64,000 nt of DNA from a virus, in the IMG/VR virus record IMGVR_UViG_3300049139_000178, positions 30,962-94,961 of that record. One strand, 5' to 3'. Shown in pieces: positions 9,039-28,120 of the stretch (position 1 is the first letter of the stretch; every line of letters begins with the position of its first letter). A program made the translations under genes and the position numbers. The notes beneath the pieces were generated by a model. The model made no database searches. It saw nothing but the letters and a program-made list of their open reading frames with translations, and had not been told where the DNA came from.

Positions 9039-9074
9039 GAGCCCCGGAGCCCTACGGCCCGGGGCTTCGTCGTG
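9039..9074 (+). terminator. GAAGCCCCGG-family hairpin terminator
   Basis: GAGCCCCGG...CCGGGGCTTCGTCGTG. Confidence 0.65.
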
Positions 9075-9168: not shown

Positions 9169-10005
9169 ATGACCACGACCATCGGAACCGAACAGGTCTC
9201 GCTGGAAGACCTCACCCCGTTCCCCGGCAACGCGCGCCGGGGCAACGTGGAGACGATCCTGGACAGCCTCCGGGCGAACGGCCAGTACAAGCCGCTCACC
9301 GTTCGCCGGGCCGGCGAGACGCTGACGATCCTCGCCGGGAATCACACGTACGTAGCGCTGCTGCGGCACGAGGAGTCCGGCCGCGAAGCCTGCCAGGACT
9401 GGGAGCTGGCCAACGACCGGCCGTGCCAGCTCTGCATCAACGTCGACCGCGACGACCCGACTGCGCTCTCCCATCTCATCGAGTGCGACGACGACACCGC
9501 CAAGCGCATCAACCTGGTGGACAACAAATCGGCGGACGACGGCACCTACGACGACGAGGCCGTGGCCGCCATCCTCGGCTCGCTGGAGGGCGGTGTCGTC
9601 GGCACCGGCTTCACAGACGACGAGGCCGACTCTCTGCTGGCCCGGTTCGAGGAGGAGGAGGTCGTCGCGTACACCGCGCCGGCCGTCGCCGAGTACAACG
9701 ACTCCCCGGAGGAACGCCAGGCCCGCATCGACTCGCACGGCGGGGAGAACAGCCGTACCTACGAGTCCCGGGGCGTGCGGGACATCTTCCTCGCCATGCC
9801 CAACGCCGAGGCCGACGAGCTGGGCCGCTGCATCATGGCGCTGCGCGAGCACTTCGGCGCCATGAGCCAGAGCGAGATCGTGCTGCGGGCGGCCCGGGTG
9901 GCCGTGGCGGTGATGGACGGTGCCGGCTCGGGCCTGACCCTCGCGGAGTGCCTCAGCCGGGGCGAGGAGATCTACGCCCCGGAGGAGACCGAGGACGCGA
10001 CGTGA
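9169..10005 (+). CDS. ParB/Srx-like protein heading the DNA modification locus
   Basis: LTPFPGNARRGNV...SLRANGQYKPL...ILAGNHT...LVDNK. Confidence 0.85.
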   Translation: MTTTIGTEQVSLEDLTPFPGNARRGNVETILDSLRANGQYKPLTVRRAGETLTILAGNHTYVALLRHEESGREACQDWELANDRPCQLCINVDRDDPTALSHLIECDDDTAKRINLVDNKSADDGTYDDEAVAAILGSLEGGVVGTGFTDDEADSLLARFEEEEVVAYTAPAVAEYNDSPEERQARIDSHGGENSRTYESRGVRDIFLAMPNAEADELGRCIMALREHFGAMSQSEIVLRAARVAVAVMDGAGSGLTLAECLSRGEEIYAPEETEDAT

Positions 10006-11090
10006 CCACCCCTCCCGAGCTGACCGCCGGCGTGGACTTCCGGCAGTCCTCCCTCCGGCGCGAGGTGTTCCTGCGCTTTTACGAGTGGTCGGTGCGGCAC
10101 AAGTCGTTCCCCGGCGGGGTGCATTACGTGCTGCCGCACCTGGCCGACGTACTCGGATGGGACACGGAGCAGCGGTTCTGGGCCGCTTTCCTCAACGCCA
10201 ATACGCAGAACCCCGTCACCACGCTGCTGCTCATGCAGGCCGCCCCGCACCCCGCCGACACCTCCGGGGCGCTGGCGTTCTGGCAGCGTCACTACCGCGA
10301 GCTGGAGTGGGACACCGACCGCCGGTACCACAAGGCCCGGTTCGGCGACGCGGTGGACGGCTATCTGCACCTCGTCGGCTCCGGCCCGGCGGCGCAGACC
10401 CGCTACTTCCGCCGGCCGCACGAGTGGACGGCGTGGTGGGAGGCTGCGTCGGCCGTGCCGACCATGGGGCGCCTGTCCACCTGGAGCTATTTGGAGTACC
10501 TGCGGATCCTGGAGTGCGGGGCCCCGGACGCCGACACGCTCATGCTCACCGACATCCCCGGCTCCCGCAGTCACCGCAACGGCCTCGCCCTGGTGGCCGG
10601 ACACGACGAGTGGATCTCAGACAAGCAGCTCGGCCGGGCCCCGGTCAGCTACACCCCGGACATCCTGAGCGAGCTGGCCTCCGTCGGCTACGGCTTGCTG
10701 CGCGAGGCGGCCCGCCGCCTGCCCGGTGACCGCACGGTCGGCTACCTGTCGCTGGAGTCGGCTCTGTGCACGTACAAGAGCTGGCACAAGCCGAACCGCA
10801 GGTACCCCGGCGTCTACAACGACATGCTGCACGACCGGCTCGTGCGGGCTGAGAACCGCTTCGGCCGCCGCTTCGGCGCCATCTGGGACGCCCGGCGCGA
10901 GGCCCTGCCCGCCAGGTTGCGGCTGGAGGACAACCCCGGCGATCCGGGCTGCGTGCCGGTCAAACAGAACTGGTACCTGACCACCGGCCAGGTCATCGGC
11001 ATGGCGGAAGAGTGGCCGTGCTTCAGCAACGACTTCGACCGCATGGTGCGCGAGGGCGTGTTCGGCGTGAGGGAGCGGGCGTGGCTGTGA
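10002..11090 (+). CDS. amino acid:DNA transferase (aGPT-pyrophosphorylase family, HhH-glycosylase fold)
   Basis: WDTDRRYHK, MGRLSTWSYLEYL, SRSHRNGL, LESALCTYK, RYPGVY; GTGA coupling; neighbours are a kinase, a PLP enzyme and TET/JBP. Confidence 0.8.
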   Translation: MTTPPELTAGVDFRQSSLRREVFLRFYEWSVRHKSFPGGVHYVLPHLADVLGWDTEQRFWAAFLNANTQNPVTTLLLMQAAPHPADTSGALAFWQRHYRELEWDTDRRYHKARFGDAVDGYLHLVGSGPAAQTRYFRRPHEWTAWWEAASAVPTMGRLSTWSYLEYLRILECGAPDADTLMLTDIPGSRSHRNGLALVAGHDEWISDKQLGRAPVSYTPDILSELASVGYGLLREAARRLPGDRTVGYLSLESALCTYKSWHKPNRRYPGVYNDMLHDRLVRAENRFGRRFGAIWDARREALPARLRLEDNPGDPGCVPVKQNWYLTTGQVIGMAEEWPCFSNDFDRMVREGVFGVRERAWL

Positions 11091-11815
11091 ACAAAGCGAT
11101 CATCTGCGAGCGGTGGGAGGTGCCACTGGCCGAGCAGAACGACGGCAACAGGTGGTTCGCCGACTGGGTCCGCCGCGACCCCAAACAGGCCAGCGCCCAC
11201 GTCACCGCCGGGTACTGCGCCTACCGCGCGCTCAGCCTCGTCTACACCCCCGACGAACTGCGCACGGCGGAGGAGTTCTTCGGCGGGCTGGGCTGCCAGT
11301 CGCTCATCATCAGCGACCGGTGGCAGCCGGAGCAGCACACCATCCACGAGCAGCACCCGGCCGCCGTGGAGCACCTGCGCACGCTGATGCCGTGGGCTGA
11401 GGTGTGGCGCTCCGACTCCTACGCCGTGGAGCCGGCCGGGGCGGATCTGGTCGGGCTGGACTTCGGAGACCTGACGGCGTGGCGGCTGCGCGAGGGCCAG
11501 GCCCACCGGCGGCTACTCGATGCGGTGTTCACCCGCCGGCCGAAGGCTGTCGTACTCACGGACATCGCCGGGCCCCGGCTGCACCTGCACCGGCAGCGCT
11601 ACGGCGAAGTCCTCGGCGCGGCCAGCCTGCCCGGCTACCGCACGTACCTGGAGGCGCTGGTGCGCTGGTTCCAGACCACCTACGACTACGCGCTGGTGCG
11701 CGGCTACTGGCAGAGCTGGTCCACCGTGCTCGCGCTCGTACCGGCGGAGAACTTCATCGGGCTGGGGTCGCTGGAGCCCGTGCCCGACCGGCCCCGAGGA
11801 ATCGAGATCCTGTGA
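11087..11815 (+). CDS. class I SAM-dependent methyltransferase-like protein
   Basis: EEFFGGLGCQS (motif I-like), acidic residue at the end of the next strand (TIHE), DSY, ADLVGLDFG (degenerate motif IV). Confidence 0.55.
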   Translation: MNKAIICERWEVPLAEQNDGNRWFADWVRRDPKQASAHVTAGYCAYRALSLVYTPDELRTAEEFFGGLGCQSLIISDRWQPEQHTIHEQHPAAVEHLRTLMPWAEVWRSDSYAVEPAGADLVGLDFGDLTAWRLREGQAHRRLLDAVFTRRPKAVVLTDIAGPRLHLHRQRYGEVLGAASLPGYRTYLEALVRWFQTTYDYALVRGYWQSWSTVLALVPAENFIGLGSLEPVPDRPRGIEIL

Positions 11816-12684
11816 TGGACCTGGACACCTGGCTCAGCCCTGTAGAGAACCGGGACGGCCGCCTCTACAAGCGCGAAGACCTCGCCGCGCTGCCGGTCGG
11901 CGTCAACGGCTCCAAGTTGCGCGCCTGCGAGCACCTGATAGGCCGGGCGGCACGCGCCGGCGCCAAGCGCGTCATCTCCGCAGCCTCGGTGCTCTCCCCG
12001 CAGAGCGCCATGGCGGCCGTCCTGGCGCAGCGCCACGGGCTGGGTTGCACGGTCGTCGTCGGCGGCACGAAGCCCAGCACGGCCATCCGCCACCCGTCGG
12101 TGCGCATGGCCGTGGACCACGGCGCCTCGTTGGAGTTCGCGGCCGTCGGCTACAACCCGGCGCTTCAGTCCTACGCGCGCAAGCTGGCCGCGCTCGACCC
12201 CGACGCCTACTGGCTCCAGTACGGCATCACCACCCCGCCGTCCGCCGGCCGCGAGGAGCTGCGCGCCTTTCACAACGTCGCCGCCCGGCAGACGGCCAAC
12301 CTGCCGCGCGGGGTGGAGACGCTCGTCGTGCCGTTCGGCTCGGGCAACACGGCCGCCGGGGTGCTCATGGGCCTGGCGCAGCGAGCCCCGGCGGACCGTC
12401 CGGAGCGCATTGTACTCGTCGGCATCGGCCCCGACCGGCGGACCTGGCTCGCGGACCGCTTCGCCGCGATGGGCCTGCGCCTCCCGGCCTACGAGCACCT
12501 GGACCTGCACGGCTCCGGGTATGCCGCCTACGGCGACAAGATGCCCGGCACCGCCGACGGTATCCGACTGCACCCCACCTACGAGGGCAAGATCGTGCGC
12601 TACCTGAACGAGCACCGGCCCGACTGGTGGACCCGGCGCGACGGCACCACCTGCCTGTGGATCGTGGGAGGGCCGATCTCGTGA
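11815..12684 (+). CDS. fold-type II PLP-dependent enzyme (ACC deaminase/D-cysteine desulfhydrase-like)
   Basis: YKREDL...NGSKLR (PLP lysine), VPFGSGNTAAG, LHPTYEGK. Confidence 0.85.
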   Translation: MDLDTWLSPVENRDGRLYKREDLAALPVGVNGSKLRACEHLIGRAARAGAKRVISAASVLSPQSAMAAVLAQRHGLGCTVVVGGTKPSTAIRHPSVRMAVDHGASLEFAAVGYNPALQSYARKLAALDPDAYWLQYGITTPPSAGREELRAFHNVAARQTANLPRGVETLVVPFGSGNTAAGVLMGLAQRAPADRPERIVLVGIGPDRRTWLADRFAAMGLRLPAYEHLDLHGSGYAAYGDKMPGTADGIRLHPTYEGKIVRYLNEHRPDWWTRRDGTTCLWIVGGPIS

Positions 12685-13256
12685 TCAGTGAGCTGCTGTA
12701 CCTCGTCGGCCCGCCCGGCGCCGGGAAGTCCACCCTCGCGCGGGAACTGCGCACCGGCTGGGACACGGAGGTCGACCGGCACCACCCTGTCCCGCATACC
12801 CGGCTCACCCACCCGGCGACCGGCCGGACCGTCGGTCTGGAGCTGGGGGTGCCCCGTCCGGAGTTCCCCGGCACCGACGCCCTGGCCATGGACATAGGGC
12901 TCCGGGCCCTCCAGTTCCTCTCCTCCAGCTACCTGCACTTCGCGCTCGGCGAGGGCGCCCGGCTGGCGACGAAGCCGTTCCTCGCCGGTCTCGCGCAGCA
13001 GGGAATTGCCGTGACCGTGGTGGAGCTGATGGCACCGCAGGCCCTGCTCGACGAGCGGTGGCGCGAGCGCGGAGCGAAGCAGAACCCGTCCTGGCGCAAG
13101 GGCGCGGCCACCCGGGCCCGCCGCATAGCCGAGTGGGCCGCCGGGGCGCCCGGCGTCCGGCTGCGGTGCATCGATGTGGGGGAGTACGGCCTGTCGGAGA
13201 TGGCGGACGAGGTGCGCGACGCCTTCCCGCCGATAGCCCTGGGGGTGAACCGGTGA
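12681..13256 (+). CDS. P-loop nucleotide/DNA kinase
   Basis: LVGPPGAGKST, PGTDALAMD, GEGARL, RGAKQNPSWRKG. Confidence 0.8.
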   Translation: MISELLYLVGPPGAGKSTLARELRTGWDTEVDRHHPVPHTRLTHPATGRTVGLELGVPRPEFPGTDALAMDIGLRALQFLSSSYLHFALGEGARLATKPFLAGLAQQGIAVTVVELMAPQALLDERWRERGAKQNPSWRKGAATRARRIAEWAAGAPGVRLRCIDVGEYGLSEMADEVRDAFPPIALGVNR

Positions 13257-14143
13257 TCTCGATACGCCTGCGCTCGCGCATCGGCAAACAGGAGCTGGAC
13301 GAGAAGGTCGGCAAGGTCATCGGCGACGACGCGTACAACGTGCTGCTGACGGGTCCGAGCAGGGTGTTCATGCCCAACGGGCAGCCGCTGTGCGTCTACC
13401 TGCCCGGAGCGATGCGCGACGTCGTCACCGACGAGCAGTACGAGACCTTGCACTCGCTGCACAGCACCAAGACCGGTAACAGGGGCCTGGCCGGGGGAGC
13501 CCCGACGTGGACCACAGGCAAGCAGTGGCGAGCGTTCCCGGTGTCGTCCGCCGTACTGGGCTCCCTGGACCCCAAGCTGCCGAGAAATCCCGCCTGTCGC
13601 CTGACGGCCTGGACTGGCAAAAACCTCCCCCGGTGGGAGGTGCTGCACCCGGCGCTTCAGGCCGTCGCGGACAACATGCGGCAGCACGTCCCCGACAGGT
13701 ATGCGGCGCAGATGGAAGAGATCGACCAGACGCATCCGGATTGGGTGGTACCCGGCACCCCGTTCACGACGATCACGGTCAACAACACGTACCCGACCGG
13801 TGTGCACACCGATAAGGGTGACCTGGACAAGGGCTTCAGCACGATCTTCTGCGTGCGTCGGGGCGAGTACACCGGCGGCCGGTTCGTCTTCCCGGAGTTC
13901 CGCGTCGCCGTCGACCTCCAGGACGGCGACCTGATCCTGATGGACGCCCACCAGTGGCACGGCAATACGGCCCTGGTCTGCGCGTGCGGGGAGAAGCGGA
14001 CGGCCTACTGCGAGGAGTGCGGCGCCGAGCGGATCTCAGTCGTCTCGTACATGCGCACTGCGATGACCAAGTGCGGTAGCGAGGCTGAGGAGATCGACCG
14101 GGCGCGGGAGTACCGCGAGCGCACCAAGGGCGTCGTCCGTTAA
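13253..14143 (+). CDS. TET/JBP-family 2OG-Fe(II) dioxygenase
   Basis: FTTITVNN...HTDKGD (HxD), GGRFVFPEF, HQWHGNT (distal His), RISVVSY (2OG-binding Arg). Confidence 0.9.
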   Translation: MISIRLRSRIGKQELDEKVGKVIGDDAYNVLLTGPSRVFMPNGQPLCVYLPGAMRDVVTDEQYETLHSLHSTKTGNRGLAGGAPTWTTGKQWRAFPVSSAVLGSLDPKLPRNPACRLTAWTGKNLPRWEVLHPALQAVADNMRQHVPDRYAAQMEEIDQTHPDWVVPGTPFTTITVNNTYPTGVHTDKGDLDKGFSTIFCVRRGEYTGGRFVFPEFRVAVDLQDGDLILMDAHQWHGNTALVCACGEKRTAYCEECGAERISVVSYMRTAMTKCGSEAEEIDRAREYRERTKGVVR

Positions 14144-14165: not shown

Positions 14166-14798
14166 ATGGCGAAGGGTGATCCGCCCAACCAACAGCCCAG
14201 CCACCGGGCGATGGTGGCGCAGCGGCGCGCACGGGCCATCGAGCTGAAGAACCGGGGCTTGTCCTGGCAGCAAGTGGCCGAGCAGATGGTTCCGGCCTAT
14301 CTGGACGGCGACGGCAACCCGTCGGCTGCCGCCGCGTGCGTGGACGTCTCCCGCGCGCTGAAGCAGGCCAACAAGGAACTTTCGATGGGGCTGGAGGAGT
14401 ACCGCGAGGCGGCGCGCATGCGGCTGGACGGGCTGCGCCGGCAGGTGTTCGCAGTCCTCGCCCGGCCGCACTACGTACTGCACGCGGGGCAAATCGTCCG
14501 CGACGACGAAGGCAATCCTCTGCGGGACGACAGCGTGGTGCTCGCGTGCGTCGACCGGCTGCAACGCATCGAAGAGCGCCAGGCGAAGATCGACGGCACG
14601 GACGCGTCGGAGAAGTTGACCATCGCCTTGGACCGCAGGGTCGACGAGGAAACGACGGTGGTGGTAGAAGCGATCCTGGCCGGCGCCAACGCGGTCGAGT
14701 TGGAGCCCGCGCAGCGACAGCGGATGCTGGAGGCCGCTGGTGCGCACCTGCGTGTCCTGGAGGGCGAGGTCGTCGGCGAGGCGGAGGAGCCGGAGTGA
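14166..14798 (+). CDS. terS: terminase small subunit (HTH)
   Basis: RRARAIELKNRGLSWQQVAE HTH...RLDGL...IEERQAKIDGTD; position upstream of terL. Confidence 0.7.
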   Translation: MAKGDPPNQQPSHRAMVAQRRARAIELKNRGLSWQQVAEQMVPAYLDGDGNPSAAAACVDVSRALKQANKELSMGLEEYREAARMRLDGLRRQVFAVLARPHYVLHAGQIVRDDEGNPLRDDSVVLACVDRLQRIEERQAKIDGTDASEKLTIALDRRVDEETTVVVEAILAGANAVELEPAQRQRMLEAAGAHLRVLEGEVVGEAEEPE

Positions 14799-15033: not shown

Positions 15034-15288
15034 GTGCCCCTCCCCACTGACGGCTTCACCACCGCCAGCGTCACCTACTCCCTCGCCACCAGCGACAACC
15101 TGCCGGTGAACATCACCGTGCGGACGGACAACGCAGGGCGGCGCGAGGCGTTCGAGCTGTTCCAGCCGTACCTGGAGGCGGCCCTGAACCAGCTCCGCAA
15201 CGACTACGCCAACGGCACTGAGCAGGAGGTGCTCTACATCGAGCGTGCCTACGGCGCGGCCATGCAGGAACAACTGACGAGCGAGTAG
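15034..15288 (+). CDS. hypothetical protein
   Basis: AGGAGG RBS, GTG start, MPLPTDGF... Confidence 0.65.
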   Translation: MPLPTDGFTTASVTYSLATSDNLPVNITVRTDNAGRREAFELFQPYLEAALNQLRNDYANGTEQEVLYIERAYGAAMQEQLTSE

Positions 15289-15460
15289 CCGGCCGGCCAC
15301 CTGGGTACGACACCTGGGACGGCGGCCCGTACACACCGCCTCAGCTCTGGAACCGCCCGGCGCCGCACCGGGCGGTTCCTGCGTTTCCCAGGTTGTTCGG
15401 CGATTCTCCGGTCCCTGGCTACCATCCGGCCACGACCAGTGACCAAGGAGACGAGTGGCC

Positions 15461-16546
15461 ATGCGTGTTCTGCTCACCGGTGCGGCGGGGTTCGTCGGCA
15501 GCCACGTCCTGCGCCATCTGCTGACGCATACGGACTGGGACGTCGTCTGCCCGGTCAGCTTCCACCACAAGGGCCTGCCGGCGCGCATCGCCTCAGCCGT
15601 CTGCGACACCGACTGGTCCCACCGAGTGGACGTCGTGCACTGGGATATGCGGTCCCCGGCCGACCCGCTGACGCTGCACCAGCTCGACGGCTGCGACGTC
15701 ATCATGAACGTCGCCAGCGAGTCGCACGTCGACCGCTCTATCACTCACCCCGTCGACTTCGTGCAGAACAACGTCGCGTTGATGCTGAACGTCCTGGAGG
15801 TCGCGCGGGCCATCGAGCCCCGACTGCTCCTCCAGATGTCCACCGACGAAGTCTACGGCCCGGCCTACGGCGACCACCGGCACCGCGAGTGGGAACCGGC
15901 CGTGCCGTCGAATCCGTACTCGGCGAGCAAGGCGGCGCAGGAGTCCATCGCCATCAGCTACTGGCGGACCTACGGCGTGCCGCTCGTCATCACCAACACC
16001 ATGAACATCATCGGGGAGATGCAGGACGGCGAGAAGTTTCTGCCAAGAATCATCAAGAGTCTGCGCGCGGGTCGGCCCGTGCCAGTGCACACCGCACCCG
16101 ACGGCACCCCCGGCTCCCGCTTCTACCTGCACGCGCGCAACCTCGCCGACGCCTGGCTGTTCCTGACGCGGCGGTATACCGACGAGGGCGACATCGAGGT
16201 GACCACGCTGGGTGGTGAGGTCATCCGCATCCCCACGGGCCCCGCGCAGTACAGCCACGGCGGAACCCGGCGGCCCGACAGGTTCAACATCGTCGGCGAG
16301 CGCGAGGTGAACAACGCCGAGCTGGTCGGAATGGTTGGGCAGCTCATGGGGCTGGGGCCGTGCGAGGTGGACCAGTTGATCCAGCCGGTGTCCTTCCACG
16401 CCTCACGGCCGGGTCACGACCTGCGATACGCCCTGGACGGGTCCAAGATGGCTCGCCTCGGCTGGGAGCCCCCGGTGCCGCTGGAGAAGTCCATCGAAAC
16501 CACCGTGCGCTGGTCGCTCGACAACCCGGCCTGGCTGGAGCTGTAG
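15461..16546 (+). CDS. NAD-dependent NDP-sugar 4,6-dehydratase (RmlB-like extended SDR)
   Basis: TGAAGFVG, ASESHVDRSI, STDEVYG, YSASK, RPGHDLRYALD. Confidence 0.9.
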   Translation: MRVLLTGAAGFVGSHVLRHLLTHTDWDVVCPVSFHHKGLPARIASAVCDTDWSHRVDVVHWDMRSPADPLTLHQLDGCDVIMNVASESHVDRSITHPVDFVQNNVALMLNVLEVARAIEPRLLLQMSTDEVYGPAYGDHRHREWEPAVPSNPYSASKAAQESIAISYWRTYGVPLVITNTMNIIGEMQDGEKFLPRIIKSLRAGRPVPVHTAPDGTPGSRFYLHARNLADAWLFLTRRYTDEGDIEVTTLGGEVIRIPTGPAQYSHGGTRRPDRFNIVGEREVNNAELVGMVGQLMGLGPCEVDQLIQPVSFHASRPGHDLRYALDGSKMARLGWEPPVPLEKSIETTVRWSLDNPAWLEL

Positions 16547-19231: not shown

Positions 19232-19331
19232 TACCGGACCCTCACCCACTAGAACCCCGGCGCCCTTCCGGTCCGGGGCTCCGCCGATGCTCCGGAAAGC
19301 AACGGCCGCAGCTCCACCGACAATGACCCCC

Positions 19332-20693
19332 ATGGTGGACCGGAAGCTGAGCCGCGCGGCGGCCGAACGGCTGCTGATGCACGCGCGCACGCTGACCGAG
19401 CCGCGCTGGACTCCGCTGCCCCACCAGGTCCCGCCCGAGGGCGACTGGTACGGCTGGTTGCTGCTCGCGGGCCGTGGCGCCGGCAAGACAGACGCCTGCG
19501 CGCGGTACGTCCACGAGCACGTCATGGGCCCGCCGTGCCTACCGGGTCCCACCCCGCACTGGATCGGCATCATCGCGCCCACCCTCGGCGACGCGGCCAC
19601 GTCCTGCTACGCCGGTCCGTCCGGACTCCGGGTGCACAGCCCCGAGGCTCGGATGATGACCGTCCAGGGCGGCACGGTCATCCGCTGGCCCAACGGCTCC
19701 GAGGCGAAGCTGTTCGGCGCCGACAGCCCCGGCAGCGTCGAGCGCCTGCGGTCCGGCGGTAACCGCTGCCTCTCGTGGTTGGAAGAGCTGGCGGCCTGGC
19801 GCTACCTGGACGACACCTGGGACCAAATGCGCTTCGGCCTGCGCACTGGTCCCCGGCCGCACTGGGTGGCGTCCACCACGCCGAAGCCCCGGGCGCTGAT
19901 CAAGAAACTCGCGTCCGGCGGAGTCGAGAACGTGGTGCGCACCCGGGCGTCCATGTACGACAACCCCCACCTGCCCGAGGACATCAAGGCCGCGCTGGAG
20001 GACGCATACGGCAGTACGCAGATCGGCCGCCAGGAGCTGCACGCCGAGATCATCGACCAGGACGAGAACGCGCTGTGGACTCGCGACACGATCGACGCCC
20101 ACCGACTGCGCCCGGCGGACCTCCCGGACCTCGCGCGGATCTCCGTCGGCGTAGACCCCTCCGGCGGCCGGGGCGAGCAGGGCATCGTCGTCGTGGGCAA
20201 GGCTATGCAGGAGCACGTCCGAACCGACGGCCGCCCGGCGCAGCTCGCCCACGGCTACGTCCTCGCCGACCGGACGTGCCACCTTTCCCCGGACGGCTGG
20301 GGCCGGCGTGCGGTTCAGGCGGCCGTCGACTACGACGCGGACGATATCTGCTGTGAAGTGAATTTTGGCGGGGACATGGCCGTCAACACGATCCGGGCGG
20401 CGGCCGACGCGATGGGCGTGCGCATCCCGATCCGCACCGTGCGCGCCACGCGGGGGAAGAAGGTGCGCGCGGAGCCGGTGTCGGCCCTGTCCGAGCAGGG
20501 CCGCTGGCACATGGTGGGGGAGTTCCCCGAGCTGGAGGACCAGATGTGCACCTGGTACGACGAGCTGGACTGGAGCCCCGACCGGCTGGACGCGATGGTG
20601 TGGCCGGCCTGGCACCAGCGGATCGTGAAACCGACAATGACCGGCACGACGTCGTCCAAGGGCCTGGCCACCGCTGCGCGGACCATCGGATGA
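19332..20693 (+). CDS. terL: terminase large subunit
   Basis: LAGRGAGKT (Walker A), WLEELA (Walker B), STTPK, GVDPS and SPDRLDAMVW (RNase H-like nuclease). Start may be 19323. Confidence 0.92.
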   Translation: MVDRKLSRAAAERLLMHARTLTEPRWTPLPHQVPPEGDWYGWLLLAGRGAGKTDACARYVHEHVMGPPCLPGPTPHWIGIIAPTLGDAATSCYAGPSGLRVHSPEARMMTVQGGTVIRWPNGSEAKLFGADSPGSVERLRSGGNRCLSWLEELAAWRYLDDTWDQMRFGLRTGPRPHWVASTTPKPRALIKKLASGGVENVVRTRASMYDNPHLPEDIKAALEDAYGSTQIGRQELHAEIIDQDENALWTRDTIDAHRLRPADLPDLARISVGVDPSGGRGEQGIVVVGKAMQEHVRTDGRPAQLAHGYVLADRTCHLSPDGWGRRAVQAAVDYDADDICCEVNFGGDMAVNTIRAAADAMGVRIPIRTVRATRGKKVRAEPVSALSEQGRWHMVGEFPELEDQMCTWYDELDWSPDRLDAMVWPAWHQRIVKPTMTGTTSSKGLATAARTIG

Positions 20694-20757
20694 CGTGCGG
20701 AGTTGGTGATTTGGGCAGACGGTTGAAGAATCGCCGCCCCGGACGGGTGACGTGGGG

Positions 20758-20792
20758 TTGTCCGGCGTACGGGAGCATGGTTTAGTAAATTC
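20758..20792 (+). promoter_or_regulatory. conserved promoter/operator copy
   Basis: TTGTCC-12 nt-CATGGTTTAGTAAATTC. Confidence 0.7.
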
Positions 20793-20822
20793 ATCGGTGA
20801 CCACGGAACAGAGGAGCAGACC

Positions 20823-21752
20823 ATGGAACTTGACCCCAACCTCCGCGAGATGGCGGACGACCTCAAAAACAGGCTTGCCTGGACCCCGGGCCTCGGATGG
20901 CTGTACTGGGACGGCAAAACCTGGGTGACGCAGTTCGGCGCGGACGAGGCGGCCGACCGGGTGAACCAGTGGCGGGAAGAGCACGGGCACCGCCGACTCT
21001 CTGACAGGCACGTCCGTACGATCCTCCGTCAGCTCCAGGTTGTTCTGGAGATCGACGCGCAGACCCTGGACTCACACCCCGGCCTGCTCAACGTGCAGAA
21101 CGGCGTGGTGGACCTCTTCACCGGAACGCTGCACCCGCACGACCCCGCCTTGCTGCTGACCAAGGTAGCGGCTGTCGATTACGACCCCGACGCTCAGAGC
21201 CCGGCCTGGGACCAGGTACTCGCGGCCCTGCCGCCCGGAGTGCCTTTCCGGCTCGGATCGTTCGTCGCGGGAGCCGTAACCGGAGAACCTGCCGATTCGG
21301 CCGCCGTCCTGCACGGCCCGGGGTCGTCCGGGAAGTCGACGTTCCTTCGGCCGCTATGCGATGCCCTCGGGAACCACGCGCTGTACTCGGTCAATTGGCC
21401 CCTGGCCGGGGACCTGCGCGGTGTCCGTCTCGTCGTGGCTGAGGAGATCGGGCGCATCAACACCGGTCAGTTGAAGCTCCTGCTCACAGAGAGCATGATC
21501 GTCACGCGGCACCCCCACCGGGACCCTTACACGTTCAAGCCGTCACACAGCCTGGCCCTGGTGACAGGACCGCACGACGATCGGGGGCTGGACGAAGGTA
21601 CCCGGCGGCGCCTGAACCCCATCGAGTTCGAGGAGCTGACCGACCCGGACCCGAGCCTGCGACCCCGCCTGAAGGAGACCGAAGCCCTGCGCGCTGCTCT
21701 CGCGTGGGCTGTGGGTCAAGTTACACCGTTGCCGGGAGCAGTGGGCCGCTGA
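20823..21752 (+). CDS. stand-alone D5_N + SF3 P-loop helicase-like protein (no primase domain)
   Basis: GLGWLYWDGKTW, LNVQNGVVDL...HDP..LLTK, GPGSSGKST, VAEE; paralogous to the central part of 2282-6652. Confidence 0.8.
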   Translation: MELDPNLREMADDLKNRLAWTPGLGWLYWDGKTWVTQFGADEAADRVNQWREEHGHRRLSDRHVRTILRQLQVVLEIDAQTLDSHPGLLNVQNGVVDLFTGTLHPHDPALLLTKVAAVDYDPDAQSPAWDQVLAALPPGVPFRLGSFVAGAVTGEPADSAAVLHGPGSSGKSTFLRPLCDALGNHALYSVNWPLAGDLRGVRLVVAEEIGRINTGQLKLLLTESMIVTRHPHRDPYTFKPSHSLALVTGPHDDRGLDEGTRRRLNPIEFEELTDPDPSLRPRLKETEALRAALAWAVGQVTPLPGAVGR

Positions 21753-21860
21753 ACGCAGCCGTTGACCACCCACCCTGAAGCGCGAAAGGAGGATCCACTA
21801 TGTGCCCCACGTGCCACGGACGAGATGGCCAGCACCACGTCCAGTGCCCCCAGTTCTGAC

Positions 21861-21904
21861 CACGACGAAGCCCCGGCGCCCTCGCGGCCCGGGGCTTCGT
21901 CGTG
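21861..21904. terminator. GAAGCCCCGG-family hairpin terminator
   Basis: CACGACGAAGCCCCGG...CCGGGGCTTCGTCGTG perfect 16-bp arms. Confidence 0.75.
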
Positions 21905-21967
21905 CCCCGAGATGGTGAATCGGCGGATCTGCCCTACCCTGCCCGGGTCTCTTCCTCGGGAGGAATC

Positions 21968-22333
21968 ATGGGCAAGGTGTACGGGCGGGAACCGGCCGTG
22001 TGGCTGGCGGCCGTCGGAGCGGTGTGGCAGATCCTCAGCGCGTTCGGCCTCGGGTTCGACCCGCAGCTCCAGTCCATCATCACCGCCATCGTCGCGGCCG
22101 TGCTCGGCATCATCGTCGCCGTGCAGGTAGGTGACGGCATCATCGCGGCCCTGAACGGCCTCGTGGTCGCGGGCGTCTCCCTCACCGCGTACTTCGGGTT
22201 CGACTGGGACGCCGAGACGCAGGCCAAGGTCGTCGGCGCCGTCATGCTGATCGTCGCGTGGCTGTTCACCCGGCCGAACGTCACCGCGCCGCAGCCCGCC
22301 ACCGTTTCCCCTCCAGGCAAGCTCGTCGCTTGA
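21968..22333 (+). CDS. multi-TM membrane protein, holin-like
   Basis: YGREPAVW...RPNVT with four hydrophobic segments; GGAGG RBS. Confidence 0.65.
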   Translation: MGKVYGREPAVWLAAVGAVWQILSAFGLGFDPQLQSIITAIVAAVLGIIVAVQVGDGIIAALNGLVVAGVSLTAYFGFDWDAETQAKVVGAVMLIVAWLFTRPNVTAPQPATVSPPGKLVA

Positions 22334-22443
22334 CGCAACTAGGTCACCAGGCGCAACGTCTCTCCTACGGCGGGGCGCTCGGCCTGGTGACCACCTCCAA
22401 CACGTCGCCCGACAGGGCGTCCCGTCCACATGACCATGGAGCC

Positions 22444-22881
22444 GTGACCGTGCCCGTCTGGCTGCTCATCGCCTGCATGATCCTCGCGAACTACCGTGCC
22501 GCGCGCCTCGCCGTGCGGGATACGTTCCCGCCTGTGCTGTGGCTGCGTGACCGTCTCGCCGGCGGGTGGCGCCCATTGACGGAACCAGAGCAGGAACGGC
22601 ACGCGGCCCCTCAGCCGTCTAATGAAGAGCCGTTCGTGCGTCATCCGGCCCTCGGCACGCTGACGCTCATCGACGGCCGGGTGAACCGCTACGTGCGCCG
22701 CAAGAGCTGGTCGCCGTACTGGCTGGCGGAGCTGCTCACTTGCCCGTGGTGCGTGTCCGGGTGGCTGTCCGCCGCGCTCACCGCAGCCGTCGCCTTCACT
22801 GTCGGCGTCCCGGCGCCGGTGCTCGTGTGGGGCGCGGTATGGGGTGCCTCCGCCTTGCTCGCCTCGCGCGAGTGGGCCTGA
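22444..22881 (+). CDS. DUF1360-like membrane protein
   Basis: YRAARLAVRD...ELLTCPWCVSGW. Confidence 0.7.
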   Translation: MTVPVWLLIACMILANYRAARLAVRDTFPPVLWLRDRLAGGWRPLTEPEQERHAAPQPSNEEPFVRHPALGTLTLIDGRVNRYVRRKSWSPYWLAELLTCPWCVSGWLSAALTAAVAFTVGVPAPVLVWGAVWGASALLASREWA

Positions 22882-22926
22882 CCTGAATCACCCCGAACCG
22901 TCGACCGCAGCCGATAGCCTGCGGTC

Positions 22927-23193
22927 GTGAACGTTACGAGGAATTCTGACGGCAGCCATGAGCCCCCGTACGACGAGAGCTGGCCGCCCCGCATGCAGCT
23001 CGAATGGTCCGCCGGCGTAGTCGCATCCAAGACGGGACTACGCATCCACATCAGCGAGCTGGGCGAGGACCAGTACGCGGTCCGGGTCGGCAGCAGCGGA
23101 CTGAGCCCCATGAACCTTGCCAACGCGTACGCCTTCCTGGACGGAGTCTCGGTCGGAGCGCGGGAGACCTCGGTTGTCAGTGCCTCGCGGTAA
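22927..23193 (+). CDS. hypothetical protein
   Basis: ORF filling the gap on the coding strand. Confidence 0.5.
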   Translation: MNVTRNSDGSHEPPYDESWPPRMQLEWSAGVVASKTGLRIHISELGEDQYAVRVGSSGLSPMNLANAYAFLDGVSVGARETSVVSASR

Positions 23194-23202
23194 CTTCCCG
23201 AC

Positions 23203-24471
23203 ATGACCGACACCACCACATCGCTCCCGGTCTACGAGCGCCGGGACATCCCCGAGCAGCACCGGCACCTGCGCACAATGACGGAGCTGAAGAAGGACCG
23301 GCTGAAGCCCGCCGAGGGGCAGGAGCCCGTGGCCATGCTGCGGGTCTACCGGCGCGGGCACGGCTGGGGCAAGTTCCCGCTGTACGACCCGGCTGGCGCG
23401 GCGAAGATGCGCCCGCTGTCCGCGAAGCAGCAACGGGCCATGGAAGTCCGGCGCACCTGCCCCGAGTGCGAGGCCGTGCGCGGGTACGTCGTCTACACCC
23501 GGTGCACCGACTGCCGTACGAAGGCGCAGCAGGAAGCGCAGGACCGCCGGGCCCGGACCTGCGAGCGGTGCCGACGGGTGTCCGGGGCCGCGCTGCCGAA
23601 GGACGTACACGGCTGGCCGGCGTGCGACCCGTGCCGGATCCGTTACGCGCTCTGCAAGCAGCTCGCCGACGAGCGCGCGGCCGTGTGGCGCCGTACCTGC
23701 CCCGGATACCCGGGCCACGACTGCACGGTGCAGACAGCAACCGATGAGGAAATCACTGAGGCGTGGAACGCCGGAGACTACACCGGCCCCTGGCGATGCC
23801 CGCCGTGCGCGGAGGCCTACGACAGGTGGCAGGAGACCCAGCACCGCGAAGCGGAGGAGAACGGGCGCCGCGCTGAGGAAGCGCGGGAGCGGCAGGTCGC
23901 CGACCTGTCCGCGTGGGCGCGGGACGCCCTCGCCGACCCGGCCGTGGTCGTCCTGGACACGGAGACGACCGGGCTGCACGACGAGGCGCGCATCGTCGAC
24001 CTGGCTGTGCTGACCGCCGGCGGCGACGTCCTCGTGGACACGTTGCTCGACCCGGGCGAGCCGATCCCGGCCGAGGCGTGGGGAGTTCACGGCATCTCCG
24101 ACGCGGACGTGCAGAGGGCGCCCCGGTTCGGCGACATCCTGGTGCAGCTGACCGGCGCACTGGTCAACCGCCGGTGCCTGATCTACAACGACACGTTCGA
24201 CGTCGCCCGGCTGCGTCACGAGCTGACGCTGCACTACCGCGAGGCCGGCCACGACGACCCGGCCGCCTCCGCCGCCGCGTGGCTGGGCACGATGCGGTTC
24301 GAGGACGTGATGGTGCCGTACTCGGACTGGTTCGGGGAGGAGTCACCCTTCGGCGACTACCGCTGGCAGCCGTTGTACGGCGGGGACCACCGGGCCGCCT
24401 CCGACTGCCGCGCGGTGCTGGACCGGCTGCGCGACATGGCCTCCGGGGTTGTCGACCCGGTCGAGTCATGA
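23203..24471 (+). CDS. DEDDh 3'-5' exonuclease (DnaQ-like) with N-terminal Zn fingers
   Basis: VLDTETTGL, VHGI, YNDTFD, HRAASD; several CxxC pairs. Confidence 0.88.
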   Translation: MTDTTTSLPVYERRDIPEQHRHLRTMTELKKDRLKPAEGQEPVAMLRVYRRGHGWGKFPLYDPAGAAKMRPLSAKQQRAMEVRRTCPECEAVRGYVVYTRCTDCRTKAQQEAQDRRARTCERCRRVSGAALPKDVHGWPACDPCRIRYALCKQLADERAAVWRRTCPGYPGHDCTVQTATDEEITEAWNAGDYTGPWRCPPCAEAYDRWQETQHREAEENGRRAEEARERQVADLSAWARDALADPAVVVLDTETTGLHDEARIVDLAVLTAGGDVLVDTLLDPGEPIPAEAWGVHGISDADVQRAPRFGDILVQLTGALVNRRCLIYNDTFDVARLRHELTLHYREAGHDDPAASAAAWLGTMRFEDVMVPYSDWFGEESPFGDYRWQPLYGGDHRAASDCRAVLDRLRDMASGVVDPVES

Positions 24472-24483
24472 TTTAATCAAATC
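24449..24483 (+). promoter_or_regulatory. conserved promoter/operator copy
   Basis: TTGTCG-12 nt-CATGATTTAATCAAATC. Confidence 0.7.
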
Positions 24484-24512
24484 AGTAACACCGACCAAGG
24501 AAGGCAGGACCC

Positions 24513-24914
24513 ATGACCCTCATCGCCAAAGGTCCAGTGTGGACCGGCCGCATCTACGGCGTCCGCGCACGGGCAGCCACGTGGGAGATGACCCCGGTGG
24601 AGCTGGCCCGCGTGTTCGCCCACGCGCATGGCTACCGGACGGCCGTCGGCGGGTGGATCTACGACCCGGAAGGGCACCCCGTTGCCCACGGCTGGCAGTC
24701 TTTTGCCGACGCTCTCGCCGCGCGGGGGTGGATCGTAGAAGGCAAGGGCGTCGCCTGGACGAAAGCCACGTGGGAAGGCAACCGGCTCCCGCTGTCCAAG
24801 TCCTACCGCACGGAACTCGCCCACGACGCCAAGATGCAGGCGCAGGGACGCGAGCTGCGGCGCGTCATGCGCGGCGGCCGGATGGTCACCGCATGGGTGC
24901 CGAAGGGCTGCTGA
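24513..24914 (+). CDS. hypothetical protein in a single-gene cassette
   Basis: Promoter + CCGACCAAGGAA + ORF + terminator. Confidence 0.7.
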   Translation: MTLIAKGPVWTGRIYGVRARAATWEMTPVELARVFAHAHGYRTAVGGWIYDPEGHPVAHGWQSFADALAARGWIVEGKGVAWTKATWEGNRLPLSKSYRTELAHDAKMQAQGRELRRVMRGGRMVTAWVPKGC

Positions 24915-24961
24915 CACGACGAAGCCCCGGAGTCACGGGACTCCGGGGCTTCGTCGTGTCA
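24912..24961. terminator. bidirectional terminator with 23-bp perfect arms
   Basis: TGACACGACGAAGCCCCGGAGTC-ACGG-GACTCCGGGGCTTCGTCGTGTCA; the arms include both convergent stop codons. Confidence 0.85.
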
Positions 24962-26044
24962 CAGGAACCGGTCGACCAGGCCCTCATACACCGCCACGGC
25001 CGCCGCCGCGTGCGTGCGCTTGAGCGCCTCGTCGTCCCGGCGCCGGATGTACCGCATGGTCGTCGCCACCTGGCTGTGGTCGGCGAACCGTCGGATGTCG
25101 TCGGGCTTCACACCCTGGTCGTACATGTGGGTGAGCTTGCTCGCCCGCAGGACGTGTGGGGTGAGGTCCCGGCCGGGCAGTACGCCGGCCGCGCGGCCCA
25201 GGCGGTTCAGCAGCCGGTCCACCGCGTGCCGGTCCATCGGCCGATCGTCGTCATCGAGCAGCAGCGGCCCGGAGGTCCGGCCCTGCCAGCACACGGCCCC
25301 GAGTTCGCACAGCTTCGGAGGCAGGGTGAACTTCCGGCCCTTGCCGCCCTTGCGGGTCAGGTCCAGTTTGCACTCCCCGCCGGACGGCTTCATGTGCTGC
25401 ATCCCGGCCGCGCAGCACTCCGAGACGCGGCCGGCCAGCGTGTAGATGAGCACCGGCACGAGGGCCTGCCGGGGCGTGGCCGCCTGCTCCACCACGGCCT
25501 GGAACTCAGGCACTTCGAGAATCGGCGTCATGGCCGTCTCGTCGTGCGGGTCGATCACCGGCCGGTCGTACCGGGTGATGGGGTTGATGATCTCCAGCCG
25601 GGTGCGGAACTTGGTGTACTCGATCAGCGAAGTCAGCGACGACGCCAGGCGGTTGACCCGGCGGGGCCCGAGGCCGATGTCCGTTGTCCAGGCCCGCCAG
25701 GCCGGGATGACGTCGGAGGTGATCGCCCCGAGGTAGAAGGGCTCGGTGCCGACCAGCTCCCGAGCGGCCCTCGCCCAGTGGCGGACGTCGTCGGCGTACT
25801 CGCGCCGGGTGCCGTCGCTGGTGAGCCGCTCGGAGTTCAGCCACCCCACCACGTGCTCGAACGTCTCCGGCGCGCACAGCTCGTGCAGGAGGTCCAGCCG
25901 GTGGACGCGCGGTCCGAGCCGGCGGTTCTTTGGGTCGCGCGGGGCGACCGTGCCCAGTTTCTCGCGCAGGCCCAGCATGGTGCGCAGCGCCACGTTGCCG
26001 TCGGCCGAGATCGTGTCGGCCCCTGCCGCCGTCATGATCGTCAT
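24959..26044 (-). CDS. tyrosine recombinase (integrase/XerC-like)
   Basis: RVSE, RKGGK, HVLR, HSQVATTMRY catalytic R-K-H-R-H-Y set. Confidence 0.92.
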   Translation of the reverse strand: MTIMTAAGADTISADGNVALRTMLGLREKLGTVAPRDPKNRRLGPRVHRLDLLHELCAPETFEHVVGWLNSERLTSDGTRREYADDVRHWARAARELVGTEPFYLGAITSDVIPAWRAWTTDIGLGPRRVNRLASSLTSLIEYTKFRTRLEIINPITRYDRPVIDPHDETAMTPILEVPEFQAVVEQAATPRQALVPVLIYTLAGRVSECCAAGMQHMKPSGGECKLDLTRKGGKGRKFTLPPKLCELGAVCWQGRTSGPLLLDDDDRPMDRHAVDRLLNRLGRAAGVLPGRDLTPHVLRASKLTHMYDQGVKPDDIRRFADHSQVATTMRYIRRRDDEALKRTHAAAAVAVYEGLVDRFL

Positions 26045-26333
26045 GGCAGATGAGCCTATCCCTGCGGCCCCTGGCCCGTCTGCACCCAGGGGTGGCGGGC
26101 TGTCCTCCTTTGGCCGTGACGCCTCAGGTGAGCAGGGGCCGCGCCTCGGTGATATGTCCGATCCGTGGGAGCCATGGCAGTCACGTGCCGTCGGACTCGC
26201 TCACACGAGGAAAACGGGCCTGGGTCCAGTCTGGCACACAGGATGTATCGGGGCGGCGACGTGCTCAAAACACACGTTTTGCGCTTCGCCCAGAGCGATT
26301 CTGCGGCAGACGGGTTCCGTGGCATCCTCCGGG

Positions 26334-26368
26334 TTGTCCTCTGCGGGACCCTATGGTTTAATTAATTC
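26334..26368 (+). promoter_or_regulatory. conserved promoter/operator copy
   Basis: TTGTCC-12 nt-TATGGTTTAATTAATTC. Confidence 0.75.
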
Positions 26369-26408
26369 ATCGGGCAACGAGCCGGAAGACCAAGGAAAGA
26401 AGGAACGC

Positions 26409-26600
26409 ATGGCCGTCAACCTCCCCACTCCTCTCCCGCAGTGCCCCAAGCACGGCAGGATGCAGCTCCGTCCGGGCCACACCCTGGAACAGCGGTGGTG
26501 CGGGACCTGGTACGACTGCACCGAGCCTCGGTGCAGCACTTCAACGCTTCTGGCTTCCCCCGCGTTGACGGCTTCGCTGGAAGTGCAGCGAACCGCCTGA
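26409..26600 (+). CDS. small Zn-ribbon protein
   Basis: CPKH...WCGTWYDC...C; GACCAAGGAAAGAAGGAA leader. Confidence 0.65.
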   Translation: MAVNLPTPLPQCPKHGRMQLRPGHTLEQRWCGTWYDCTEPRCSTSTLLASPALTASLEVQRTA

Positions 26601-26631
26601 CCCGCCGTACAGACCAAGGAGACCTCGTCGC

Positions 26632-26928
26632 ATGAGCGACCCCACCCCGATCCGCCGCCCTGCCCGGACAGGTCACCGATGCATCTGCGGTGCTACGTGG
26701 CGGCCGGGGTTCTCCTCGGATCCCGCGTGGCTCTTCACGGCGGATCCCCGGCTGAGCACCTTCGTCGGACTGCTGCACTGCCAGGCGTGCGGCCGGCGGA
26801 AGACCGACGTGCTCCGGGAGCAGGCCGAGCAGAAGCGCGCGGCCACCCCACCGGCCATCCCGCCTCGCGAGCGCCCGCCGGCCAAGGTTCTTCCGTTCAG
26901 GAAGCCCTCGGCCGACGAGGCCAACTGA
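26632..26928 (+). CDS. small Zn-finger protein
   Basis: CICG...CQACG; GACCAAGGAG leader. Confidence 0.65.
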   Translation: MSDPTPIRRPARTGHRCICGATWRPGFSSDPAWLFTADPRLSTFVGLLHCQACGRRKTDVLREQAEQKRAATPPAIPPRERPPAKVLPFRKPSADEAN

Positions 26929-26947
26929 CCAAGGAAAGAGGGACCCG

Positions 26948-27175
26948 ATGAGTGGGCTGACCAGGCACGGAAAGGTGATCACGTACACCGACGAGTCCGG
27001 AGACAGCATCGAGATCACCGCTGCGCGGGATAGCGGCGGACGTCCGGTGGTTGCCCTGGTCCCGGTGCTGGACGCGGGTGGCGAACTCGTGCACGTGGCC
27101 GACGAGGACGTGGAGGAGTTCATCGCGGCCGTCCGCGAGAAGCAGGTAGAGGCTCGGGAGAAGTACGACACCTGA
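26948..27175 (+). CDS. hypothetical protein
   Basis: GACCAAGGAAAGAGG leader. Confidence 0.7.
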   Translation: MSGLTRHGKVITYTDESGDSIEITAARDSGGRPVVALVPVLDAGGELVHVADEDVEEFIAAVREKQVEAREKYDT

Positions 27176-27203
27176 CGCCCGGCAGACCAAGGAAAGAAGG
27201 ACC

Positions 27204-27620
27204 ATGACGCGCACCGCTAACGACAGGATGCGGAGCAACGCCCGCCTGCGGATGTTCAGCCTCGCCCGGGGCCACGGCGGCTTGAAGACCGTGGCCGACG
27301 TGGAGCAGCGCACGAACATGAACGACGCGCGTATAGCACTGTGCTTCGCGATGGGTGTGGACCCGGAGGACATCGACCCGAGCAGCGGCCACCACATCGG
27401 CCGGTCGGCGTACGAGAACAGCCGGACCTCATGGGTCGACCACATAGCGCAGTTCGGGTGGAGCGACTACTACGACGGCCCCGCGCTCGCCGAGGTCATG
27501 GAGCGCTGGGCCGCACGGCGCCCACAGTTCACCGCCGGGGACGACTGGAAGGCGGCCGGGATAGCCGCACACCTTCTGCGCTCGTGCAGCCGATCGCCCT
27601 GCGACGTGCACGCAGACTGA
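27204..27620 (+). CDS. hypothetical protein
   Basis: GACCAAGGAAAGAAGGA leader. Confidence 0.7.
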   Translation: MTRTANDRMRSNARLRMFSLARGHGGLKTVADVEQRTNMNDARIALCFAMGVDPEDIDPSSGHHIGRSAYENSRTSWVDHIAQFGWSDYYDGPALAEVMERWAARRPQFTAGDDWKAAGIAAHLLRSCSRSPCDVHAD

Positions 27621-27624
27621 CGGG

Positions 27625-27659
27625 TTGTGCCCCTGCCCGAGCTATGATTTAATTAAGTC
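27625..27659 (+). promoter_or_regulatory. conserved promoter/operator copy
   Basis: TTGTGC-12 nt-TATGATTTAATTAAGTC. Confidence 0.75.
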
Positions 27660-27700
27660 ATCGGGCAGGGGCCCGCCGGACCAAGGAAAAGGAACCGACC

Positions 27701-27769
27701 ATGACCGCTGTAGCCGTCGAACTGATCCCCGCTGTCGCCTGCGCCGAGGCCGGCCACAGCACCCACTGA
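27701..27769 (+). CDS. 22-aa micro-ORF or gene remnant
   Basis: Full promoter and GACCAAGGAAAAGGAACCGACC leader before ATG; MTAVAVELIPAVACAEAGHSTH. Confidence 0.4.
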   Translation: MTAVAVELIPAVACAEAGHSTH

Positions 27770-27836
27770 CGCCAGACACGACGAAGCCCCGGGACAACTA
27801 CGCTTTGGGGCCCACCCGAACCGAGGAGAACACAGG

Positions 27837-28067: not shown

Positions 28068-28072
28068 CCCCA

Positions 28073-28120
28073 GACGCGACGAAGCCCCGGGACTCCACCA
28101 CAGGTCCCGGGGCTTCGCTG
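28073..28120. terminator. GAAGCCCCGG-family bidirectional terminator
   Basis: CGAAGCCCCGGGAC...GTCCCGGGGCTTCG between convergent genes. Confidence 0.75.

Follow-up and report, generated by a model that had tools for sequence, protein, structure and literature searches.

A translationally coupled phage cassette that probably hypermodifies thymine after replication, with a candidate tailoring protein of the SAM-methyltransferase fold

Results

Six overlapping genes form a probable DNA modification cassette

We analyzed a 64,000-nucleotide (nt) stretch of viral DNA, hereafter the window, that spans positions 30,962 to 94,961 of the IMG/VR record IMGVR_UViG_3300049139_000178. At 9169-14143 of the window, six successive coding frames on the + strand (genes A to F) make up a cassette that probably turns the thymine of finished DNA into a bulky, amino-acid-derived base. 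Genes in this ~69% G+C sequence were called from a frame plot of the GC content at third codon positions (GC3), which lay between 0.90 and 0.94 across the six frames. Adjacent genes overlap through their stop and start codons, which read GTGA at the A/B, B/C, D/E, and E/F junctions and GTGA or TGATG at the C/D junction. Both lines of evidence bear out the six translationally coupled genes proposed at this position in a preliminary description of the DNA.

Profile searches identified the products of most of these genes. Gene A (9169-10005, + strand) encodes a ParB-like protein, as judged from its match to phrog_723 (1.9e-38), a profile match to the Noc/Spo0J/ParB N-terminal domain, and alignment. 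Gene B (10002-11090, + strand) encodes an amino acid:DNA transferase (AADT, formerly aGPT-Pplase) that matched the Pfam family ADDT (PF18724, 3e-14) with 53.7 bits against a curated cut-off of 26.2. It is followed by gene C (11087-11815, + strand), encoding 242 amino acids (aa) and assigned to a class I S-adenosylmethionine (SAM) methyltransferase fold by structural modeling and structure comparison. Gene D (11812-12684, + strand) encodes a fold-type II pyridoxal phosphate (PLP) enzyme, recognized by PALP (PF00291, 2.5e-13; 50.5 bits, cut-off 35) and by BLASTP similarity to gp226 of Salmonella phage ViI. Gene E (12681-13256, + strand) encodes a P-loop kinase of the Ploopntkinase3 family (PF18751, 1.2e-26; 93.9 bits, cut-off 27), and gene F (13253-14143, + strand) encodes a TET/JBP dioxygenase dependent on 2-oxoglutarate (2OG) and Fe(II) (Tet_JBP PF12851, 3.6e-20; 72.3 bits, cut-off 34.9), an assignment also supported by alignments. 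The matches to Tet_JBP, ADDT, and the P-loop kinase family, which had been suggested as a check of the earlier assignments, therefore all exceed the Pfam cut-offs. Each of the six assignments was confirmed or sharpened by Pfam and PHROG or, for gene C, by the predicted fold.

The ParB-like protein and the dioxygenase resemble a ParB-dependent pair

The start of the ParB-like protein at 9169 is backed by an alignment with 29 relatives. A profile built from gene A and its relatives matched the Noc/Spo0J/ParB N-terminal domain only, with an E-value of about 1e-10 (2e-10, positions 9-97), and no match to a helix-turn-helix (HTH) DNA-binding domain was found in either the profile or the alignment. 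The protein is laid out as an N-terminal ParB/CTPase-fold domain, a short helical segment, an acidic linker, and a C-terminal helical domain, the last recognized from the alignment only; residues N21, R23, and S33 are conserved. An insert of about 30 aa (residues 65-97; 9361-9459) containing C75, C85, and C88 is shared by the closest relatives only.

In the TET/JBP protein, the residues H185-x-D187, H236, R260 (the 2OG-binding arginine), and C274 are invariant among 30 aligned relatives, and a C-terminal extension of 22 residues follows C274. An insert of the form CxC...CxxC (C243, C245, C253, and C256; 13979-14020) separates the distal histidine from the 2OG-binding arginine. It belongs to the alignment consensus of the relatives and is missing from one of them (L016). 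Either this insert or the cysteine-containing insert of the ParB-like protein could bind zinc. The TET profile gave no match by sequence to a solved structure.

An extension past the last conserved cysteine (C280 of 5mYOX176) is reported to be exclusive to ParB-dependent enzymes (O'Toole et al. 2026, PMC13229309), and we liken C274 of the window enzyme to this residue by analogy. Judged by their sequences, the two proteins appear to fit the ParB-dependent subclass of thymine dioxygenases published in that study.

The AADT and the PLP enzyme retain the residues of characterized enzymes

The AADT shares 25% identity with the serine:DNA transferase gp247 of ViI (E 3e-18). Its E252-S253-x-x-C256 matches the E243/T244/C247 site of gp46 of Pseudomonas phage PaMx11, in which E243 and T244 are metal ligands and C247 is the proposed nucleophile (PMC11472151). 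No solved structure was matched by the window AADT at the sequence level. The PLP enzyme aligned with ViI gp226 by BLASTP at 30% identity over 275 query residues (E 2e-45), its K35 falling on K92, the proposed Schiff-base lysine of gp226. The latter enzyme was shown to decarboxylate O-serinyl-T (PMC8989533).

The kinase has an intact Walker A motif (GPPGAGKST) and shows no BLASTP similarity to the ViI kinase gp243. To place it in context, we used a comparison of 80 related viral loci gathered through the TET alignment; in nearly every locus that has both genes, the kinase gene lies directly upstream of the TET gene.

Gene C is predicted to be a class I SAM-methyltransferase-fold protein

Searches with gene C returned no Pfam or PHROG match, no significant sequence match in the PDB, and no informative protein-atlas cluster. 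Its AlphaFold2 model (pLDDT 92.9, pTM 0.91) adopts the fold of class I SAM methyltransferases (Foldseek E about 1e-8). In VIA-align comparisons, the highest score was obtained with Trm1 (Z 15.0, 214 residues aligned), followed by PrmA (14.7), Trm5 (14.1), and TrmM (14.0), and many further methyltransferases scored down to a Z of 12. The nearest chains are mostly N-methyltransferases, and an RsmD-like enzyme and HemK2 are also among them. Invariant residues fall on the secondary structure elements of the model: G66-G67-x-G69, within motif I (E63-x-F-G-G-x-G69), follows strand 1, E88 ends strand 2, D110 follows strand 3, and D125-F-G-D128 ends strand 4, at the position of motif IV. On the strength of this model, gene C encodes a class I SAM methyltransferase-fold protein, for which SAM binding and methyl transfer are predicted.

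The gene C family is small and confined to viruses. A search of 5.8 billion proteins yielded 141 relatives, all unnamed, and when 1.84 billion representatives were searched exhaustively with a profile, only 410 clusters were found. No match was found by tblastn in cultured phages or by a pattern scan in 185,579 representative genomes.

We then considered the neighbors of gene C at 17 viral loci. In 12 of these, AADT, PLP, and/or kinase genes lie no more than a few kb from gene C, which in most of the 12 is an immediate neighbor of the AADT and PLP genes or is placed directly between them. The remaining five contigs have an AADT elsewhere (three of five) and/or a PALP enzyme elsewhere (four of five); AADT family matches were found in none of 14 control genomes. 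All five TET-less gene C contigs that we tested contain a ThyA-family gene. Moreover, gene C and AADT domains are fused in a natural protein of 609 aa, the former matching the window protein (E 2e-17) and the latter PF18724 (6.5e-12). Because of this AADT/PLP/kinase context, the ThyA genes of the TET-less contigs, and the AADT fusion, we conclude that gene C is a component of thymidine hypermodification, however the 5-hydroxymethyluracil (5hmU) is made.

A second long protein with a gene C domain (P0165, 443 aa) has a C-terminal half that matches no family. The ThyA-family genes of the TET-less gene C phages (L008, L010, L012, L013, and L015) occupy unusually long frames of 493-574 aa, which suggests a hydroxymethylase fused to another domain. 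In two of these phages (L010 and L015), gene C is part of the replication module and follows a VapE-type primase/helicase.

Tailoring genes are exchanged within a constant frame

The order ParB-AADT-PLP-kinase-TET recurs in at least nine of the 80 related loci, and gene C is absent from all 80. In a locus whose TET is 79% identical to that of the window (L023), the AADT and PLP genes are directly adjacent; in other relatives, unassigned genes lie between the PLP and kinase genes. More distant TET relatives were found within large chromosomal contigs of Microbispora, Haloechinothrix, Streptomyces, and Actinomadura.

The closest relative is contig_59 of Streptomyces africanus NRRL B-24243, a 92.7-kb contig that the element fills entirely and that is the same DNA as IMGVR_UViG_2791355405_000002. 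It shares the gene order of the window, with identities of 88% for ParB, 83% for the kinase, 85% for TET, 93% for the protein resembling a small terminase subunit (terS-like) encoded after TET, 84% for a neighboring epimerase, and 89% for the large terminase subunit (TerL). It differs in that a divergent AADT and an FAD-dependent oxidoreductase, PaMx11-like (L022/L112:4682-6432), replace the AADT-gene C-PLP segment. The constant frame is thus ParB ... kinase-TET-terS-like, and the tailoring genes in between are exchanged among close relatives. Gene C is an optional add-on to this cassette.

A partial set occurs in Mycobacterium phage AlanGrant (L019:1-2275), which encodes, in this order, gp1, a gp226-like PLP enzyme 47% identical to that of the window, the kinase, and a terminase, and has neither AADT nor TET. 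We examined gp1 as a possible relative of gene C or of the AADT and ruled this out; it is a fusion of ParB with an N6/N4 DNA methyltransferase and is unrelated to both.

The cassette lies in the packaging region of a probably temperate element

The likely 5' boundary of the unit is a GC-rich hairpin at 9040-9066 (+ strand; AGCCCCGG / CCGGGGCT), which follows the upstream gene. A second hairpin with 15-nt arms (15349-15379, + strand) is its likely downstream boundary. Between them, the region from ~9.1 to 15.35 kb of the window is likely a single transcription unit. A scan for sigma-70 promoters gave no match, and a terminator scan gave a count not above chance. The last gene of the unit may be a small open reading frame (ORF) at 15034-15288 (+ strand), which is supported by coding statistics and has no PHROG match.

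The gene at 14166-14798 (+ strand) starts 22 nt 3' of TET behind a GGAGG ribosome-binding site and encodes a terS-like HTH protein of 210 aa with a weak match to HTH_23. For its predicted fold, the ten best Foldseek matches are all TerS proteins (G20c and P74-26), although weak (E 0.1-0.35, TM 0.2-0.3). In cultured phages, its few homologues are encoded at the left end of the genome; the one that we examined, in Streptomyces phage Xkcd426, directly adjoins TerL. From its sequence and modeled fold, a role as TerS is plausible. TerL itself (19323-20693, + strand; Terminase_6N, Terminase_6C, and phrog_2) lies 5.2 kb downstream of TET and 4.5 kb from the terS-like gene. The earlier placement of the cassette beside the terminase, with terS directly after it, thus stands for the adjoining terS-like gene, whose identity is weakly supported, but not for TerL. 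Among the genes between TET and TerL are those for an NAD-dependent epimerase, a multi-HTH regulator, and an Rpf/NlpC-P60/LysM protein.

The whole of the window resembles phage DNA, with genes for a fused primase-helicase-PolA, TerL, a D5-type primase, a holin, an exonuclease, a portal, a MuF/protease, a major capsid protein, an endolysin, and a glycosyltransferase; a tyrosine integrase is encoded at 24959-26044 on the - strand. The source element is probably a temperate Streptomyces phage or phage-plasmid of roughly 95 kb. Its packaging and head module is an unusual mosaic, in which a gap of ~11 kb between TerL and the portal (19323-31484) holds the D5-type primase, the holin, the exonuclease, the opposite-strand tyrosine integrase, a GntR-like regulator, and an ATP-grasp gene.

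The NAD-dependent sugar epimerase/dehydratase between the terS-like gene and TerL (15455-16546) keeps its position in several relatives, and a glycosyltransferase-like gene (53709-54767) follows the endolysin; either could have a role in the glycosylation of DNA or of the cell envelope. A GmrSD_N (DUF262) protein is encoded on the - strand at 61279-61863. This domain is the ParB-like N-terminal part of type IV restriction enzymes directed against modified DNA, and the element that encodes it here is one whose own DNA is probably modified by its enzymes.

Discussion

We consider it likely that the cassette carries out a fully post-replicative route, T -> 5hmU -> phospho-5hmU -> aminoacyl-T -> a PLP-trimmed and tailored base, each enzymatic step of which we infer. 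The TET/JBP enzyme, with its cognate ParB-like protein as a candidate activator, would hydroxylate thymine in DNA to 5hmU, as indicated by family membership and by published work on the same gene pairing. The Ploopntkinase3 protein, a putative 5hmU DNA kinase, would then phosphorylate the hydroxymethyl group; this role rests on context because the family differs from that of ViI gp243 and occurs near the terminase without TET. The AADT would swap the phosphate for an amino acid, probably joined through its side chain with the alpha-amine left free, like serine in ViI, since a gp226-type PLP enzyme is present and a radical-SAM isomerase is absent. The PLP enzyme would decarboxylate the adduct to a primary amine, as expected from its homology to an enzyme with demonstrated activity.

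The weakest link in this scheme is the last step, in which the Trm1-like gene C would tailor the side chain, most likely by methylating the nitrogen of the new amine. We put forward this N-methylation after decarboxylation tentatively, on the basis of the modeled fold of gene C. The corollary, that it founds a family of SAM methyltransferases acting on the side chains of hypermodified thymidine and yielding an N-methylated (possibly di- or trimethylated) aminoalkyl or aminoalkoxymethyl uracil, is similarly doubtful, although possible. We also infer, rather than observe, the methylation step, the order of the steps, and a timing of the modification only before packaging.

Several observations weigh against the scheme, and they bear on the starting base, on gene C, and on the kinase. 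A complete sister element (G001; 95.7 kb, with direct terminal repeats) encodes an orphan C5-methyltransferase ~57 kb from its cassette (L102, G001:C1:75001-75927, - strand), in an apparently intact 454-aa frame with motifs I (FAGIG), IV (PPCPPF), and VI (EQV). Published phage thymine dioxygenases also oxidize 5-methylcytosine (5mC) in vitro (PMC13229309), and phage TETs acting on 5mC exist (PMC8256090). The true substrate could be cytosine if the methyltransferase made 5mC, TET oxidized it to 5-hydroxymethylcytosine, and the kinase, transferase, and PLP enzyme built on this base. We regard such a route as very improbable, given that published 5mC-type phage TETs have their methyltransferase adjacent rather than at this distance, that AADT and gp226-type PLP enzymes are known solely from 5hmU pathways (PMC8989533), that TET-less phages pair the same AADT, gene C, and PLP genes with ThyA-family genes, and that ParB-associated TETs were demonstrated to be thymine dioxygenases (PMC13229309). 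In addition, no PF00145 gene was found in two complete relatives with the ParB-AADT-PLP-kinase-TET cassette (G004 and G005, 84 and 88 kb) or in the complete genome of mycobacteriophage Prince. Because complete relatives bear the cassette without a C5-methyltransferase, thymine is the likely substrate. A side activity on 5mC is possible, and a methyltransferase of the sister type could supply TET with 5mC for a side reaction. PF00145 matches were likewise found in the S. africanus element.

These comparisons qualify the preliminary description, which had derived a post-replicative thymine route in part from the lack of a dUMP hydroxymethylase or C5-methylase in the window. Among the window ORFs scanned, we likewise found no homologue of C5-methyltransferase or thymidylate synthase, and the complete sister element has no thymidylate-synthase homologue either, but it does have the C5-methyltransferase. 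The premise therefore holds inside the window only, whereas the route itself is the same as our best explanation and fits the enzyme families.

For gene C, the structural neighbors also include TYW2 (Z 13.3), a nocardicin 3-amino-3-carboxypropyl transferase (Z 12.1), and AzeJ (Z 12.8, also found by Foldseek), and its motif IV sequence, DFGD, is no known catalytic signature of a methyltransferase; in the gene C-AADT fusion protein this position reads N...N. The pathway may accordingly run as proposed with gene C using SAM in another way, for 3-amino-3-carboxypropyl or aminopropyl transfer, or acting before the PLP enzyme. An aminocarboxypropyl group would itself suit a PLP decarboxylase, and the shared fold alone cannot separate the two kinds of transfer. 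Such a variant nevertheless seems unlikely to us, as the best and longest structural matches are true amine methyltransferases (Trm1, PrmA, TrmM, RsmD-like, and HemK2). The kinase raises a different doubt. It belongs to PF18751, whereas ViI gp243, the sole characterized 5-hmdU kinase scanned, belongs to PF18747 (HMUD2), and PF18751 kinases often stand alone beside the terminase in TET-less cluster B mycobacteriophages, in hundreds of mycobacteriophages in all, where they are sometimes annotated as terS. With the cassette located in the packaging region, and with published enzymes that are sequence-selective and modify 1-35% of thymine in Escherichia coli (PMC13229309), the kinase might be a terminase accessory and the product a simpler base, or a sparse, sequence-specific mark for packaging or regulation rather than a bulk defense against restriction. 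This appears improbable: the AADT, PLP enzyme, and gene C are conserved and translationally coupled with their catalytic residues intact, which speaks for use of the whole chemistry, and the kinase immediately precedes TET across divergent loci. We therefore retain the complete pathway starting from thymine.

A post-replicative scheme started by TET is not new in outline, having been published between 2021 and 2026. Lee et al. (NAR, online 2021, PMC8989533) described viral contigs in which TET_JBP replaces the dUMP hydroxymethylase beside thymidine hypermodification genes. O'Toole et al. (PNAS 2026, PMC13229309) showed experimentally that phages encode ParB-dependent and ParB-independent thymine dioxygenases and linked the ParB-dependent subclass to P-loop kinases and AADTs. 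A five-gene system was reported in Rhodococcus phage Tonitrus (2025 genome report), and the GenBank annotation of cluster B mycobacteriophages already uses "thymidine hydroxylase." The earlier view that such loci were known by computational prediction only is thus out of date, in light of both the 2021 clusters and the 2026 experiments. The cassette described here is real, looks intact, and belongs to a type of system already known, to which it adds a new family of tailoring enzymes, and gene C is what sets it apart from the published ones.

In the literature that we searched, there is no report of the final base of any TET-initiated thymidine hypermodification pathway, nor of a methyltransferase step or a methylated hypermodified thymidine. 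The gene set of the locus is compact, complete, and apparently intact and could be reconstituted, and a sister element resides in a culturable strain, S. africanus NRRL B-24243. Gene C adds a candidate class of SAM methyltransferase to the known tailoring enzymes, namely PLP decarboxylase, radical-SAM isomerase, flavin lyase, and acetyltransferase. If its product is N-methylated, this would be an undescribed DNA base made wholly after replication from plain thymine. The exchange of cassettes between near-identical elements directly shows how phages diversify the chemistry of their DNA, and post-replicative enzymes that act on ordinary thymine are attractive tools for site-selective DNA derivatization.

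Comparison with known systems

The closest characterized enzyme fold to gene C, Trm1, a tRNA (guanine26-N2)-dimethyltransferase, shares with it the class I Rossmann methyltransferase fold, with a GxG loop and acidic residues in the canonical places. The two proteins have no detectable sequence similarity, and they differ in the DFGD motif IV of gene C and in their substrates, presumably a DNA side chain for gene C and tRNA for Trm1.

The 5-NeOmdU pathway of ViI (Lee et al. 2018; PMC8989533) includes gp247, an AADT that falls into the Pfam family of the window enzyme, and gp226, a PLP decarboxylase homologous to the product of gene D, with the same lysine. A radical-SAM isomerase is missing from both ViI and the window, which implies that the amino acid is linked through its side chain. 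Unlike the proposed route, however, ViI makes 5hmdU at the nucleotide level, uses a PF18747 kinase, and has no TET, ParB, or gene C.

Among the cluster B mycobacteriophages, which are lytic-type Mycobacterium siphoviruses, Prince has a cassette at its left end comprising a ParB-like protein, the "thymidine hydroxylase," an AADT annotated as "DNA glycosylase," the kinase, and the terminase. Order and families are the same as in the window, likewise next to the terminase, with identities of 56% for the AADT, 42% for the kinase, 30% for ParB, and 28% for TET. The Prince cassette differs in having neither PLP enzyme nor gene C, and its kinase gene directly adjoins TerL.

The ParB-dependent 5mYOX enzymes of clade C1 (PMC13229309) are a close published parallel. 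They share with the window a TET/JBP protein with the C-terminal extension, a ParB homologue that has nucleotide-binding and C-terminal domains and no DNA-binding domain, neighboring P-loop kinase and AADT genes, and the absence of an adjacent C5-methyltransferase. A PLP enzyme and a methyltransferase of the gene C type, both encoded in the window, go unmentioned for the ParB-dependent neighborhoods in the paper's main text, and the window ParB-like protein carries an extra cysteine-containing insert relative to the ParB homologues described there.

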